Of a DNA stretch of 64,000 nucleotides, positions 1,477 to 6,456 are shown in pieces. This DNA is from Smithellaceae bacterium (GTDB lineage: Bacteria > Desulfobacterota > Syntrophia > Syntrophales > Smithellaceae). The stretch spans positions 59,134-123,133 of the forward strand of contig JAUYFM010000007.1 in assembly GCA_030690945.1 (NCBI GenBank). The letters are read 5' to 3'. Below the pieces are notes generated by a model, which had not been told where the DNA came from, did not search any database, and was given only the letters and a program-made list of their open reading frames with translations. The translations under genes and the position numbers were made by a program. Position 1 is the first letter of the stretch, and every line of letters starts with the position of its first letter.

Positions 1477-3267
1477 TTATGATGAAGATTTTTCGCTGAG
1501 TCTTTCCCGGGGCAGGACAACCTCAAATGTTGTTCCTTTCCCTTTATGGCTGATCACGCGGATTTCTCCGCCATGTCCACGGATGATCTCGTTGGCTAAG
1601 GGTATCCCCAGACCCACGCCTTTTTCTTTGGTTGTATATTCGGGGCTGAAAATCTTTTCGATTTCCTCCGCAGTCATGCCGCAGCCGGTATCGGAAATAC
1701 TCGCCATGATATAATTTGCCCCTTCTTTATCCACGGTAATGGTAATTTTTCCTTCCGCAGATATCGATTCCAAAGCGTTTTTAATCAAATTCAAAAAAGC
1801 CTGCTGGAGTTTGTTTACATCCATAGGAATTATAGCCGGCTGCAGCCGCCACTCTGTTTTAATAGTTATGCCGCGGGCGGATGCTTCCTCCTGAATCAAG
1901 TTGACAATCTTCTGCAAAACCTTGTCCACGGGAAAATCGCTGAGTTGCAGGCGGCGGCTTTTGGAAAAAGTAAGGAATTCTTCAATGATTCCGTTGAGCC
2001 GTTTTATTTCATCTCGAATAACGCCCGAAAGCTTCTGAAATTCACCGACTTTACTCTGGTCGGCCGGCACAAAATCCATCTTTAACCGTTGTGTTGCCAT
2101 GCTGATGGCGTTCAGAGGATTGCGGATTTCGTGCGCGACGCCAGCGGCGAGCTGTCCTAAAGAGGACAGACGTTCAGCTTTTTCCAGGCGGCGTTCCATG
2201 TCAATAATGCCGGCCAAATGACGGTTCTGATCGTGATAGAGCAGCCACATGGATAAGAGGGCGATGACGACAACCAGCAGCATGAAAATAAAAATATTCC
2301 TGCGGTTTTCAGCTATGATTTTATCCATCGAACCGCGTTCCAGACCGATGCGGACAAGGCCTGCAACTTTTTTATCCAGTGTAAAGGGAGCGGCCATATC
2401 AAGGATATTATTGCCTTGTACGTCCACTTTTCTGCTGACAATCCTTGTTGTTCCTTTCAGAATTTTCTGATGGTTAAAATCTTTATTGCCTAATCCTTCC
2501 GGTAATTTCCCTATATCGCCGAGCTGCTTTTCCTGATCATTAAAGATTTGCATGTAAACGATACCGTGGCCTTCGCCCATCTTATTGATGGCCCGCCCCA
2601 CGGCAACTTTCATGCTCCAGTATTTCAGCCCCTCCTTATCCAGGTTGATCACGACGGTTCCGCTTCCGTCTTTGCGCCTGAGTGCGACAAAGCCGATACC
2701 CTGTTTTATGCGGATTTTCTCCAGCAATTCGATAGTCGTTGCCTTGCGTCCGTTTGCGCTCAGATCGTTTTCATCCAGCATACTGGTTTTCAGCGGGCTG
2801 CTTTGATAAACTGCGTTACCCTCCCGATTGAGGACGGCCATGTACCAAAAGTTATGATCCGCCGCGAATTTATGGAGATAGACATTGTTAATTAATTTCT
2901 TTTTCCATTGTTCGTCAACTTTTTGTCCCAGTGCGGTAATGGCTTCGATGACCAGCTTCTTGGAATAATCCGCTTCTTCCTGACTGGCTGTTTTGGCCTG
3001 TGTCGGCATTTTTCCCGTCATGGCCACAATGCTCTTGAGATTATCTTCCGTCAGACGCTGTAAAACACTTATGGTGGCGAGCGCCTGATCTTCCATAAAT
3101 CCCACCAGGTTGGTTTCACTACGGCGGATGTCCAGAAAACCCATGATAAGAATCAAGGCGACCAGAATAGCCGAGACAATAGCCACGGCCAATGGTTGAA
3201 GAAAGCTGCCGTTATAGGGATGGGAGGCGCGCCTGATAATGGTTTCTTTTTTTCTGAAAAAAATCAT
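1477..3267 (-). CDS. sensor histidine kinase (two TM segments flanking a large sensor domain, HisKA + HATPase_c)
   Basis: H-box GVAHEIRNPLNAI. N box NLIKNALES. G boxes DTGCGM and GVGLGIPLA. N-terminal TM LAVAIVSAILVALILIMGF and a second TM IFIFMLLVVVIALLSMWLL. Confidence 0.85.
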   Translation of the reverse strand: MIFFRKKETIIRRASHPYNGSFLQPLAVAIVSAILVALILIMGFLDIRRSETNLVGFMEDQALATISVLQRLTEDNLKSIVAMTGKMPTQAKTASQEEADYSKKLVIEAITALGQKVDEQWKKKLINNVYLHKFAADHNFWYMAVLNREGNAVYQSSPLKTSMLDENDLSANGRKATTIELLEKIRIKQGIGFVALRRKDGSGTVVINLDKEGLKYWSMKVAVGRAINKMGEGHGIVYMQIFNDQEKQLGDIGKLPEGLGNKDFNHQKILKGTTRIVSRKVDVQGNNILDMAAPFTLDKKVAGLVRIGLERGSMDKIIAENRRNIFIFMLLVVVIALLSMWLLYHDQNRHLAGIIDMERRLEKAERLSSLGQLAAGVAHEIRNPLNAISMATQRLKMDFVPADQSKVGEFQKLSGVIRDEIKRLNGIIEEFLTFSKSRRLQLSDFPVDKVLQKIVNLIQEEASARGITIKTEWRLQPAIIPMDVNKLQQAFLNLIKNALESISAEGKITITVDKEGANYIMASISDTGCGMTAEEIEKIFSPEYTTKEKGVGLGIPLANEIIRGHGGEIRVISHKGKGTTFEVVLPRERLSEKSSS

Positions 3268-3330
3268 AATATCCCCATTTTACAAGAATCCAGCCGATGT
3301 TTTTACCAAGTATCCTTTATTTTGCCAGTC

Positions 3331-3358
3331 ATCTTAAGCTATTCATAAAAAATGTCAA
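3331..3358 (-). promoter_or_regulatory. candidate sigma-70-type promoter of the kinase/regulator operon
   Basis: On the minus strand: -35 TTGACA (3358-3353), 16-nt spacer, -10 TAAGAT (3336-3331). About 60 nt upstream of the ATG at 3267. Confidence 0.35.
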
Positions 3359-3386
3359 CGATAAATACCGGGTGGCTCGACGTTTT

Positions 3387-3412
3387 TGTCGAAAGATGGG
3401 CAAAGATCGACA
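3387..3412. promoter_or_regulatory. candidate enhancer (UAS) inverted repeat TGTCGA-N14-TCGACA
   Basis: Perfect 6-bp inverted repeat. Additional TCGAC/GTCGA half sites at 3378-3392. AT-rich DNA follows. Lies 155-180 bp upstream of the sigma-54 promoter at 3568. Confidence 0.25.
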
Positions 3413-3567
3413 TTTTTTATATAGCTGTTATTATTCGATTAATTTTATTAATTCAAAATAAGCCCGACATTTATTGCCGAAAGGACACCCCTATAAAACA
3501 AGGGGAGGGAAGGTATTTATCGATTAAAATTTTATTATATCAATGACTTACATTTTTATTGCGATTA

Positions 3568-3583
3568 TGGCACAATGTCTGCT
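3568..3583 (+). promoter_or_regulatory. sigma-54 (-24/-12) promoter
   Basis: TGGCACAATGTCTGCT matches TGGCAC-N5-TTGCW with exact GG-N10-GC spacing (GG 3569-3570, GC 3581-3582). No plus-strand protein gene lies downstream. Confidence 0.5.
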
Positions 3584-3593
3584 TAGTAATAGG

Positions 3594-3729
3594 CCAGAAG
3601 TGAAAGATAGTTAGTGTCGACTAAAAATATTACGGGCATGATTAGCCGACAGCAAAAATAACCCAGGAAGGTATTCAGACCTTCACTCTTCTCTCCTCGG
3701 GAGGCTCTAACCAAGCCTCCCATTTTTTT
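3594..3729 (+). ncRNA. candidate sigma-54-dependent small RNA (~135 nt)
   Basis: Bounded by the sigma-54 promoter and a plus-strand intrinsic terminator. The longest ATG ORF inside is 7 codons. Internal hairpin TTAGT-gtcg-ACTAA. Confidence 0.35.
3699..3729 (+). terminator. rho-independent terminator (plus-strand polarity)
   Basis: Stem GGGAGGC (3699-3705) / GCCTCCC (3715-3721), 9-nt loop, then A followed by T7 (3723-3729). The opposite strand has no U-run after the hairpin. Confidence 0.6.
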
Positions 3730-3730
3730 G

Positions 3731-5080
3731 TCATTTTGTCTCTTTATCATTTTTTCGCCGCCGCCAGGCATGGACTCTTTCCTTGATTGTCTTTTCAAAA
3801 CCGGCGTCTGTCGGGTGATACAATATTTTCCCCTGAAGTTTTTCTGGTAAATATTCCTGGGAAACAAAAGCATCCAAGTAATCGTGCGCATATTTGTAAT
3901 CTTTGCCGTAATCCAGTTCTTTCATTAACTTGGTCGGTGCGTTACGGATATGCAACGGGACAGGCAGATAGCCGGTTTTGTTGATCAGGTCCTTCGTCTG
4001 ACCATAACCGGTGTATAGAGCATTGCTTTTAGGCGCCGTCGCCAGATAGACGGCCGCCTGCGCGATGGCCAACTCGCCTTCCGGCAGGCCGATAAAGTGA
4101 AAGGCCTGTTGGGCGGCCATCGTCAGCAGGAGGGCATGGGGGTCGGCGTTGCCGATATCTTCGGAAGCAAAGCGCAGCATGCGGCGCAAAATATAGAGAG
4201 GGTCTTCTCCGGCAACGAGCATGCGTCCCAGCCAGTAAAGGGTTGCGTCCGGGTCGCTGCCGCGCATGCTTTTATGAAAAGCCGAGATCAGATTGTAATG
4301 CTCCTCGCCGTCCTTGTCGTACAAAAGCGCTTTTTTCAACAGGGCTTCCTGAGCGGATTGCGCCGTGATGACCCTTTCTTCCGCCGGCAGACTCTGGATC
4401 ATCGAGGTGACGGCTTCCAGGTTGTTCAGGGCCGTACGGGCGTCGCCATCGGAAAGACGGACCATAAAACGGATGGCCGCCTCGTCGGCTTTGATCGTGA
4501 ATTTTCCCAGGCCTCGTTGCTCATCGGTCAGGGCGCGCTGCAAAATGGCCATTAAATCTTCTTCCGCAAACTGTTCGAGCGTGAGCACGCGTGTGCGTGA
4601 CAGCAGAGGTGCGATGACCTCAAAAGACGGATTTTCCGTTGTCGCGCCGATCAGCGTGACCAGTCCGCTTTCCACGTGCGGCAGAAAGGCATCCTGCTGG
4701 GCTTTGTTAAAGCGGTGAATTTCGTCAACAAAAAGAATGGTTTTCTTCTTCTTGGATTCCCAGATATCTCTGGCGTCGTCAACCACCTGCCGGATTTCCT
4801 TCACGCCGGAGAGGACTGCGGAAAAACTGACAAAATTAGACTTTGTTTCATTGGCTAAGATGCGTGCCAGGGTTGTTTTGCCTGAGCCGGGCGGACCCCA
4901 GAAAATCATGGAGAAAAGTTTATCCTCCGCGATGGCGCGGCGCAGCAACGTTCCTTCGCCGATCAGATGCGGCTGCCCGATATAGTCGGCGAGCTTCAGC
5001 GGCCTCATTCTTTCGGCCAGCGGTGCCGTGTCCAAGGCGTCGCCCGGTGTGCCCAGACTGAACAAATCCAGATTCTTCAT
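3731..5080 (-). CDS. rarA: replication-associated recombination protein A (AAA+ ATPase RarA/MgsA)
   Basis: PLAERMRP N-terminal motif. Walker A GPPGSGKTT. Walker B LFVDEIHRF. MgsA C-terminal domain. The ATG at 5080 has GAGG 5 nt upstream. An alternative ATG at 5095 overlaps the trpB2 stop (TAATG). Confidence 0.9.
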   Translation of the reverse strand: MKNLDLFSLGTPGDALDTAPLAERMRPLKLADYIGQPHLIGEGTLLRRAIAEDKLFSMIFWGPPGSGKTTLARILANETKSNFVSFSAVLSGVKEIRQVVDDARDIWESKKKKTILFVDEIHRFNKAQQDAFLPHVESGLVTLIGATTENPSFEVIAPLLSRTRVLTLEQFAEEDLMAILQRALTDEQRGLGKFTIKADEAAIRFMVRLSDGDARTALNNLEAVTSMIQSLPAEERVITAQSAQEALLKKALLYDKDGEEHYNLISAFHKSMRGSDPDATLYWLGRMLVAGEDPLYILRRMLRFASEDIGNADPHALLLTMAAQQAFHFIGLPEGELAIAQAAVYLATAPKSNALYTGYGQTKDLINKTGYLPVPLHIRNAPTKLMKELDYGKDYKYAHDYLDAFVSQEYLPEKLQGKILYHPTDAGFEKTIKERVHAWRRRKNDKETK

Positions 5081-5094
5081 TTTTACCTCTAGCA

Positions 5095-6456
5095 TTAAGG
5101 CTTCGGGAAATCCTTGATGGCCAGCAACGCTCTTTGAATTTCTTCATCCGGTAATTCATAGGCTTGCAGCTGGCCGGACAGATAAGCGTCATAAGAGGCC
5201 ATATCCACCAGGCCGTGGCCGCTCCAGTTAAAGAGAATCACTTTTTCCTTGCCTTCTTCTTTGGCGCGCATCGCCTCGTCGACGACGGCCGCCAGGACAT
5301 GGTTGGTCTCCGGCGCGGGAATAAAGCCTTCCGAGCGCGCCCATTTGACACCCGCGTCGAAAGTTTTCATCTGATCGTAGGCTCTGGGTTCAATAAAGTT
5401 TTCCCGGACCAGATGGCTGACGATCGGGGCCATGCCGTGGTAGCGCAGGCCGCCCGCGTGGATTGGCGCGGGGATGTAATCGTGACCCAGTGTGTACATC
5501 GGGAGTAGCGGCGTTGTTTTGGCCAGATCGCCGAAGTCATAGGCGAATGGGCCTTTGGTCATGCTGGGGCAGGACGTCGGTTCCGCGCCGACAATCTTGA
5601 CCTGTTTGCCATGGATTTTATCGCAGACATACGGCGTGGCGATACCGGCAAAATTACTGCCGCCGCCACAGCAGCCCATGACGACATCGGGGTAGAGACC
5701 GAGTTTCTGCATTTGTTTTTGTGCCTCCAGTCCGATAATGGACTGGTAAAGCAATACATGATTCAACACACTGCCCAGAGAGTATTTTGTGTCTTTGCTG
5801 GTGACGGTATCTTCGATGGCTTCGCTGATCGCGATGCCCAGAGAGCCGGGGGAATCGGGATGCTCGGCCAGAACGTTGCGGCCGGCCTGGGTCAGGTTGC
5901 TGGGGCTGGGGATGCATTCCGCGCCCCACGTGTTCATCATCATGCGCCGGTAAGGTTTCTGCTCATAGCTGACCCTGACCATATATACACGACACGCCAG
6001 ACCGAACATCTGCGTGGCCATGGACAGAGCCGAGCCCCACTGGCCGGCGCCGGTTTCCGTGGTGATCCGCTTGGTTCCCGCCACCTTGTTGTAATAGGCC
6101 ATCGGGATGGCAGCGTTGGGTTTATGCGATCCGGCGGGGCTGACGCCTTCATTTTTATAATAAATCTGCACGGGACAGCCGAGCAGCTTTTCAAAATTGC
6201 GCGCGCGGTAAAGGGGTGAGGGACGCCACAGCAGGTATTTTTGCAGCACATCGTCGGGGATGTCGATCCAGCGCTGGGTGGATACTTCCTGCTCGATGAT
6301 GTTCATGGGGAAAATTGCCGTCAGATCATCAGCCGTAACCGGCTGGCCTGTGCCGGGATGCAGCGGCGGCTTCATCGGGGTGGGCAAATCCGCCATAATG
6401 TTGTACCATTGTCTGGGTATTTCGTTATCATCTAAAAATGTTTTGACCTGTTCCAT
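5095..6456 (-). CDS. trpB: TrpB2-type tryptophan synthase beta-like PLP enzyme
   Basis: N-terminus IPRQWYNIMADLP, typical of TrpB2. PLP-lysine motif AGSHKPN. GGGSNFAG glycine loop. 453 aa. Confidence 0.9.
   Translation of the reverse strand: MEQVKTFLDDNEIPRQWYNIMADLPTPMKPPLHPGTGQPVTADDLTAIFPMNIIEQEVSTQRWIDIPDDVLQKYLLWRPSPLYRARNFEKLLGCPVQIYYKNEGVSPAGSHKPNAAIPMAYYNKVAGTKRITTETGAGQWGSALSMATQMFGLACRVYMVRVSYEQKPYRRMMMNTWGAECIPSPSNLTQAGRNVLAEHPDSPGSLGIAISEAIEDTVTSKDTKYSLGSVLNHVLLYQSIIGLEAQKQMQKLGLYPDVVMGCCGGGSNFAGIATPYVCDKIHGKQVKIVGAEPTSCPSMTKGPFAYDFGDLAKTTPLLPMYTLGHDYIPAPIHAGGLRYHGMAPIVSHLVRENFIEPRAYDQMKTFDAGVKWARSEGFIPAPETNHVLAAVVDEAMRAKEEGKEKVILFNWSGHGLVDMASYDAYLSGQLQAYELPDEEIQRALLAIKDFPKP

Follow-up and report, generated by a model that had tools for sequence, protein, structure and literature searches.

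What occupies the gap between a two-component operon and the convergent gene rarA in a Smithellaceae bacterium (contig JAUYFM010000007.1)? The gap lies in a stretch of 64,000 nucleotides (nt) that was analysed as a whole and is called the window below. A reading made from its letters alone, here the sequence-only reading, had placed in the gap a sigma-54-dependent small RNA (sRNA) gene divergent from an operon for a sensor kinase and an NtrC-type response regulator. Comparison with related loci supports this proposal. We consider it about 75% probable that positions 3594–3729 of the plus strand encode a sigma-54- and regulator-dependent non-coding RNA that acts in trans. Judged by this comparison, the element is a stand-alone sRNA gene of a new family, found so far only in Smithellaceae (order Syntrophales), as far as sampled. 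Base pairing is the least certain part of this reading, and titration of a protein is its main rival.

Related loci were collected in two ways. A search with the kinase, limited to one genome per species, gave 80 loci with 63–98% kinase identity, all of them from Smithella, Smithellaceae or ‘Syntrophaceae’/‘Deltaproteobacteria’ metagenome-assembled genomes (MAGs); Smithella itself is placed in Smithellaceae, Syntrophales, Thermodesulfobacteriota. A metagenome scan with a pattern taken from the RNA core alone added 111 further contigs, for about 190 related loci compared in all. Apart from one unlinked lineage and L102 (both described below), the kinase lies divergent, 300–400 nt upstream of the RNA, wherever the metagenome contigs hold at least about 400 nt of upstream flank. 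The protein search returned only relatives of at least 73% identity.

Promoter, enhancer sites and the neighbouring regulator

We aligned 139 distinct regions with MAFFT and recorded mean column identity along the alignment as a footprint profile (Table 1). The −24/−12 promoter, which the sequence-only reading had recognised by its exact GG-N10-GC, is kept in all 139 regions, and its variants (TGGCAY, TGGTAC and CGGCAC) all retain this core. In every locus with enough flank the element sits 262–324 nt upstream of the kinase start and is directed away from the kinase; in the related loci about 115 nt of strongly conserved sequence come next, and then a terminator. Conservation of the GG/GC elements and of the terminator hairpin at syntenic loci, on which the earlier proposal had been made to depend, was found for both. 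Taken alone, the promoter pattern is not significant, with a single match in the 64 kb where 0.75 would be expected (the window has no other sigma-54 promoter match), and the long repeat discussed below is not conserved; the weight of the case therefore rests on conservation in related loci. As for an IHF-like site, a strict consensus stands about 30 nt upstream of the −24 element in only 65 of the 139 regions.

Two upstream activating sequences (UAS1 and UAS2) were recovered ahead of the promoter. UAS1 occurs in 135 of the 139 regions, 186–197 nt upstream of the −24 element, and UAS2 in 128, at a distance of 101–106 nt. Elsewhere in the 64 kb, CGACA-N4-TGTCG sites do not exceed chance. The sequence-only reading had sought the enhancer in the repeat TGTCGA-N14-TCGACA; this repeat exists and is rare by chance (0.09 expected), but only its left half belongs to a conserved palindrome. 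We rejected the full repeat as an enhancer because its right half (3407–3412, column identity 0.3–0.6) varies even among close relatives.

At this same right half lies the −35 hexamer of a sigma-70-like match on the plus strand (3407–3434; TCGACA, 16 nt, TATTAT, with TG). Its −10-like TGTTATTAT and the TA at 3418–19 are conserved, and in close relatives the −35 is TTGACA or TTGGCA. From this element a longer, sigma-54-independent transcript could read across UAS2 and the sRNA; alternatively, the DNA here, between UAS1 and UAS2, might be bound by a protein or bent.

The enhancer sites come in two types that follow the regulator. UAS1 takes the form GGACA-TTTT-TGTCC in five loci, and the left half of UAS2 is likewise GGACA in four of them, L004, L045, L164 and L191. 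The regulators of these four loci, which are all the GGACA-type loci with a readable regulator C-terminus, carry the recognition helix TRRMLRYK (the regulator gene of the fifth is truncated), whereas all CGACA-type loci with a readable C-terminus carry SERMLRYK. By kinase identity the GGACA-type loci are scattered among the CGACA-type ones: L004 shares 90% with L005 and L045 shares 87% with L036, both of the latter being CGACA-type. The regulators of the four loci, in contrast, are somewhat closer to each other. The matching switches, SE to TR in the helix and CGACA to GGACA in the sites, tie the regulator to the sites. Such matching is what one would expect to see if UAS1 and UAS2 are read by the regulator encoded next to them. 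The regulator, which carries the sigma-54 AAA+ module ascribed to it earlier, is presumed to be the activator of the sRNA promoter.

Both site types were also seen within one MAG, CAIVDK01 (bin-13126), which holds two whole modules (L003 and L004), each beside rarA. One combines CGACA sites with SERMLRYK and the other GGACA sites with TRRMLRYK. Probably two strains were binned together; the modules could also be two coexisting specificity alleles.

Structure of the predicted RNA

Promoter and terminator are conserved as a pair and delimit a predicted transcript in agreement with the length of about 135 nt proposed beforehand. A covariance model (R1) matches the window at 3600–3731 with 129 bits (E 1e-35), its only copy in the 64 kb, and finds exactly one copy per locus, with no second copies at any locus. 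Behind a leader that varies in sequence and length, a conserved body begins near 3612 and extends for about 115 nt, far above the flanking spacers in conservation. In alignment A1, which comprises 71 distinct genome-derived sequences, 36 columns are invariant.

The sequences fit a structure of three hairpins. In A1, 91.8% of the cells are paired, against 24–56% when the partners are slid, and seven pairs are changed on both sides. The observed scores were reached in none of 500 shuffles and the count of pairs changed on both sides in one of 500. A model-based alignment of 86 distinct sequences gives 92.5% paired cells and 13 double-change pairs, figures to be read with the leaning of this alignment towards the model.

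Most of the covariation is borne by the terminator, where six to seven of eight pairs are compensatory (GGGAGGC/GCCUCCC, GGGGUGC/GCACCCC, GGGGCGC/GCGCCCC). The 7-bp GC hairpin with its T-run had been noticed in the sequence-only reading, and a terminator scan concurs: GGGAGGC(T)...(A)GCCTCCC at 3699–3721 is followed by A and then by T7 at 3723–3729. Past the hairpin the minus strand reads GAGGAGAG and has no U-run, which upholds the earlier argument that this is not the terminator of rarA. Hairpin 3 is present in the minimum-energy folds of all six representatives. The helix of hairpin 2 likewise appears in six of six single-sequence folds; its closing pair covaries (CG, UA, UG, AU) and its loop is variable.

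Hairpin 1 behaves differently, its sole changes being U-A to U-G at two pairs (23 and 21 of the 71 sequences in A1; 27 and 13 of 86 in the model-based alignment). Such changes are tolerated only in an RNA made from the plus strand and therefore point to a plus-strand RNA. A check of related regions for covariation, recommended at the outset, has hence yielded both covarying hairpins and strand-specific G-U changes. The motif AAAAUAAC(C/G) stands in the A-rich linker and again in the loop of hairpin 1, and UAACC recurs in the terminator loop.

The recommended Rfam search placed the RNA in no family: the window and four other loci gave no match at gathering score in Rfam 15, with noise only at E ≤10 across 3250–3800. 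Overall, the comparison of loci establishes the conservation of promoter, sites, RNA body, hairpins and terminator, as well as the link between regulator helix and site sequence.

Table 1. Features of the sRNA locus, with window positions and mean column identity in the alignment of 139 regions (extent of the conserved island in brackets where it differs).
Feature	Position	Strand	Sequence or basis	Mean column identity
NtrC-family response regulator, 453 aa	101–1462	−	Pfam: REC, Sigma54_activat, HTH_8 (Fis-type)	
Membrane sensor histidine kinase, 596 aa	1477–3267	−	Pfam: HisKA, HATPase_c	
Sigma-70-type promoter of the kinase/regulator operon	3331–3358	−	−35 TTGACA 3358–3353, 16 nt, −10 TAAGAT 3336–3331	0.87 (−35 region, 3350–3362)
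UAS1	3377–3392		Palindrome TCGACG-TTTT-TGTCGA (family YCGACA-TTTT-TGTCGA); about −217 to −202 from the predicted start	0.96
N14 repeat	3387–3412		TGTCGA-N14-TCGACA; left half is the right arm of UAS1	
UAS2	3464–3479		CCGACA-TTTAT-TGCCG (family half-palindrome YCGACA-N5-TGCCG); about −130 to −115 from the predicted start	0.90 (3464–3480)
IHF-like site (weak call)	3538–3550	+	TATCAATGACTTA, matches WATCAANNNNTTR	0.71
Sigma-54 promoter	3568–3583	+	TGGCAC-aatgt-CTGCT; GG 3569–70 (−24/−25), GC 3581–82 (−12/−13)	0.84
Predicted sRNA, about 136 nt	3594–3729	+	5' end from promoter geometry	
Leader, first ~20 nt	3594–3614	+		0.40
Hairpin 1	3616–3650	+	GUCGACUA / UAGCCGAC; 19-nt loop with near-invariant ACGGG(C/U)AUGAUU	0.89 (with loop, 3615–3650)
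Single-stranded linker	3651–3666	+	A-rich, AGCAAAAAUAACCCAG	0.78
Hairpin 2	3667–3684	+	GAAGGU-loop-ACCUUC	0.77
CU-rich single-stranded stretch, candidate seed	3685–3698	+	CUCUUC 3686–3691, invariant in 71 aligned sequences	0.86 (3685–3692)
Hairpin 3 and U-tract, intrinsic terminator	3699–3729	+	Conserved loop CUAACCAAG; terminator scan	0.88 (3699–3721)
Spacers separating the islands				0.53–0.60
rarA/mgsA, AAA+ recombination factor, convergent	3731–5095	−	Pfam; marks the end of the sRNA locus, outside the module	

Mode of action and rival explanations

These features would be accounted for by the following course of events. Kinase and regulator would be made from their own sigma-70 promoter, and on an extracytoplasmic signal the kinase would phosphorylate the NtrC-type regulator. 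The regulator would bind UAS1 and UAS2 and open the sigma-54 promoter, possibly with DNA bending at the IHF-like site, and transcription would start near 3594 and stop at the intrinsic terminator. Expression, and its dependence in vivo on sigma-54 and the regulator, are presumed in this scheme. The RNA most likely acts in trans, with unpaired segments that would pair with mRNAs: the hairpin 1 loop (ACGGGYAUGAUU), the A-rich linker, CUCUUC and the terminator loop. Because UAS1 is centred about 60 bp upstream of the predicted start of the kinase operon, autoregulation of that operon is possible as well. Hfq-type features are present in the form of a U-rich 3' tail and the A-rich linker; hfq, csrA, ihfA and the RpoN box gave no match in about 1.5 Mb of sequence, an uninformative negative.

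Several observations weigh against this reading. The co-variation of helix and site is known from four loci, which may represent two or three events. No pair of hairpin 1 shows a double compensatory change, and an A·C mismatch is constant in the 71 genome-derived sequences, which makes this hairpin the weakest of the helices; it appears in the minimum-energy folds of three of the six representatives and is missing from that of the window sequence. Metatranscriptome contigs at the locus are low in depth, cross the promoter or belong to rarA, and one RNA-labelled run gives a DNA-like contig of 10 kb across the locus. The window contains complements of CCUUCACUCUUC and of the hairpin 1 loop no more often than chance predicts, and for the translation-initiation regions of the neighbours, predicted pairing does not surpass that of shuffled sequences (duplex energies against the start regions of kinase, regulator, rarA and a trpB-like gene at 45–75 loci: median z −0.5 to −0.2). 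Finally, the RNA is for the most part so conserved that it may bind a protein in place of base pairing.

Run X37, of unstated library type, gave short contigs with 650–900x depth on the core of one locus (L075:3640–3695) and about 3x on its flanks. It also has 70–300x on untranscribed conserved DNA, the UAS1 region. Since the depth is raised there too, this run looks like DNA of an abundant relative and is no evidence of expression.

Under the main rival, the RNA would be driven by sigma-54 and the regulator in just the same way, and would titrate a protein (Hfq/Crc-like or another RNA-binding one) with no mRNA pairing; we hold this to be unlikely. In its favour, the unpaired segments are almost invariant while the kinase falls to 63% identity, the linker motif is repeated as described above, and the search for pairing targets came out empty. 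That search, however, covered just 64 kb and four neighbouring genes. The two to three motif copies are far below those of CsrB, RsmY or CrcZ-type sponges, GGA-in-loop repeats are absent, and both the size and the layout of hairpins, single strands and terminator are typical of base-pairing sRNAs.

It is markedly less probable that there is no independent sRNA and that the block acts in cis on rarA, be it as terminator or 3' end, by antisense or interference, or as DNA sites for the regulator. The terminator does abut the rarA stop codon (3731–3733, minus strand), from which one nt separates the T-run in the window; rarA is the syntenic convergent neighbour in 40 of 43 full-length loci, and contigs from RNA runs begin in the terminator and extend into rarA. 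The U-tract and the G-U-compatible changes nevertheless fit the plus strand only, repeat insertions of 70–300 nt separate the terminator from rarA in many loci, and in one lineage the module lacks the kinase and faces a convergent gene other than rarA. Hairpin 1 resembles UAS half-sites (TGTCGAC ... GCCGACA downstream of the promoter), but it stays GUCGAC, unchanged, in loci where UAS and helix have switched to the GGACA type; as it fails to follow their switch, we rejected the idea that the regulator binds it as DNA. Least credible of all is a transcript that encodes a very small protein. As the sequence-only reading had stated, no plus-strand open reading frame (ORF) starting inside the predicted transcript exceeds seven codons; the longest (ATG 3638 to TAA 3661) lies inside the conserved core and is not itself conserved. 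Its frame is broken by one-nt indels in the A-run, several lineages have ATA in place of the ATG, and it lacks a preceding Shine-Dalgarno sequence. The A1 indels are not multiples of three, and together with the loss of the ATG they argue that the region is non-coding. A minus-strand ORF of 102 aa (3583–3891) overlaps rarA and crosses the same indels. With these indels, the lost ATG and no conserved ORF, we rejected coding potential of the sRNA region.

We thus retain the trans-acting, sigma-54-dependent RNA as the preferred reading. Among the syntrophs that degrade hydrocarbons and fatty acids in methanogenic consortia, the Smithellaceae, which are alkane and propionate degraders, hold a key place and are mostly uncultured; to our knowledge, almost nothing is known of their regulation. 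The module would provide a concrete regulatory unit for them, made up of a kinase, a regulator with a predicted motif, a sigma-54 promoter and an sRNA with seed candidates, and the covariance model can be used for annotating Smithellaceae genomes. Its most unusual element is the apparent natural specificity switch, two helix residues matched to one base per half-site, which offers a natural experiment on protein–DNA co-evolution in the Fis-type helix-turn-helix domains of NtrC-family activators. A more far-reaching idea, which we regard as rather doubtful, is that the sRNA is the sole direct output of the kinase/regulator pathway and a master post-transcriptional switch of syntrophy, existing in two orthogonal specificity versions. 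If this were true, the CGACA/SE and GGACA/TR versions may owe their origin or spread to recombination, and could keep parallel pathways or strains free of cross-talk.

Locus context and relation to known systems

The N-terminal extracytoplasmic domain of the kinase gives only a weak, sub-threshold sCache_3_2 signal; a PF17203 domain is precomputed on several kinase homologues. Kinase and regulator both score below the cut-off of every named NCBIfam equivalog (for the regulator, 496 bits against 714 for AtoC and 449 against 760 for ZraR; GlrR and LuxO follow below). The sigma-70-type promoter of their operon agrees with the consensus at 10 of 12 positions, and both hexamers are conserved footprints across the 139 regions. 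Directly upstream of rarA lies a gene for a TrpB-like pyridoxal phosphate enzyme (5095–6456, minus strand; NF009057, 724 bits, above cut-off). Its stop codon and the rarA start codon overlap, and the pair is syntenic in most Smithellaceae loci. On the other side, downstream of the regulator, the commonest neighbour among L001–L080, present in 24 of 43 loci, lies on the opposite strand and is a rubrerythrin/ferritin-like ORF of about 159 aa, and a DisA_N/YbbR-like ORF of about 485 aa is found in 16 of 43; no conserved co-directional target operon was seen there. Neither tRNA nor tmRNA was found near the sRNA locus.

Five loci (L087, L095, L134, L166 and L173) have UAS1, UAS2, promoter and sRNA intact with no adjacent kinase/regulator pair; in this lineage an endonuclease/exonuclease/phosphatase-like ORF takes the convergent position of rarA. 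Since the unlinked lineage keeps all of them, enhancer sites, promoter and RNA appear to travel together as a unit separable from the kinase. The upstream flank of L102 carries other ORFs in the place of the kinase, possibly an inserted mobile element.

In eleven loci (L044, L046, L050, L062, L063, L065, L067, L068, L074, L075 and L102) the sRNA terminator is separated from the convergent gene by 70–300 nt of tandem repeats, one to four hairpin-rich units of about 70 nt each (AATGAGACCCAAGCTTCAGAAACGCAGTGCGCTGAAGCTTGCTG...GAACTATCCCCGAAGCGTAGCGGAGCGGGATT), which are absent in the window. The units resemble repetitive extragenic palindromic (REP) or miniature inverted-repeat transposable elements (MITEs) and have no tRNA or Rfam match.

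Full-text searches of the literature gave no publication about sRNAs of Smithella or Syntrophus. A comparative-genomic study of the sigma-54 regulome of Desulfovibrio vulgaris predicted that enhancer-binding proteins control four non-coding RNAs (PMC4641369). These RNAs come from the same phylum and from different genera, and we detected no family in common. Myxococcus encodes the ‘deltaproteobacterial’ sRNA Pxr beside a kinase/NtrC-type pair; this RNA has a sigma-54 promoter, measures about 100 nt and folds into three stem-loops. The RNA described here has no detectable sequence similarity to Pxr, from an organism that differs in order and lifestyle, and no Rfam match, a negative that covers Pxr, CrcZ and NrsZ only if they are in release 15. 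The latter two, CrcZ/CbrAB and NrsZ/NtrBC of Pseudomonas, are sigma-54 sRNAs driven by NtrC-type two-component systems. CrcZ, encoded next to cbrB, is about 400 nt long, carries six repeated A-rich motifs and acts as a sponge; the repeat of AAAAUAAC recalls it, and our RNA has no match in Rfam.

GlmY and Qrr1, whose layouts the sequence-only reading had drawn on, remain the apt parallels, and the RNA belongs to neither family. In Enterobacteriaceae, GlmY is a sigma-54 sRNA beside GlrK/GlrR (QseE/QseF), with upstream sites, IHF and dual promoters. Here, too, the sRNA adjoins a kinase/NtrC-type pair, and a sigma-70-like element may also lie upstream; gene orientation differs, Rfam gives no match to GlmY/GlmZ, and the regulator scores 372 bits against a GlrR cut-off of 763. 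GlmY titrates the protein RapZ for GlmZ, and nothing here indicates titration of that kind. Qrr1 acts in Vibrio quorum sensing, and its gene is divergent from luxO, which encodes its NtrC-type sigma-54 activator. Unlike Qrr RNAs, the RNA has no Qrr match in Rfam by sequence or structure, its regulator scores 359 bits against a LuxO cut-off of 800, and it occurs as one copy per locus and one in the window; in contrast to Qrr1/LuxO, the kinase is co-transcribed with the regulator, the site is CGACA-N4-TGTCG and the phylum is different. As with Qrr1, a short multi-hairpin RNA ends in an intrinsic terminator, and the predicted activator sites lie in the shared intergenic region, from which they could also autoregulate the activator operon. 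Going by these comparisons, the feature is real and its class is a known one, a sigma-54 sRNA beside its putative activator, so the general picture of sigma-54 sRNAs is unchanged by this new family.

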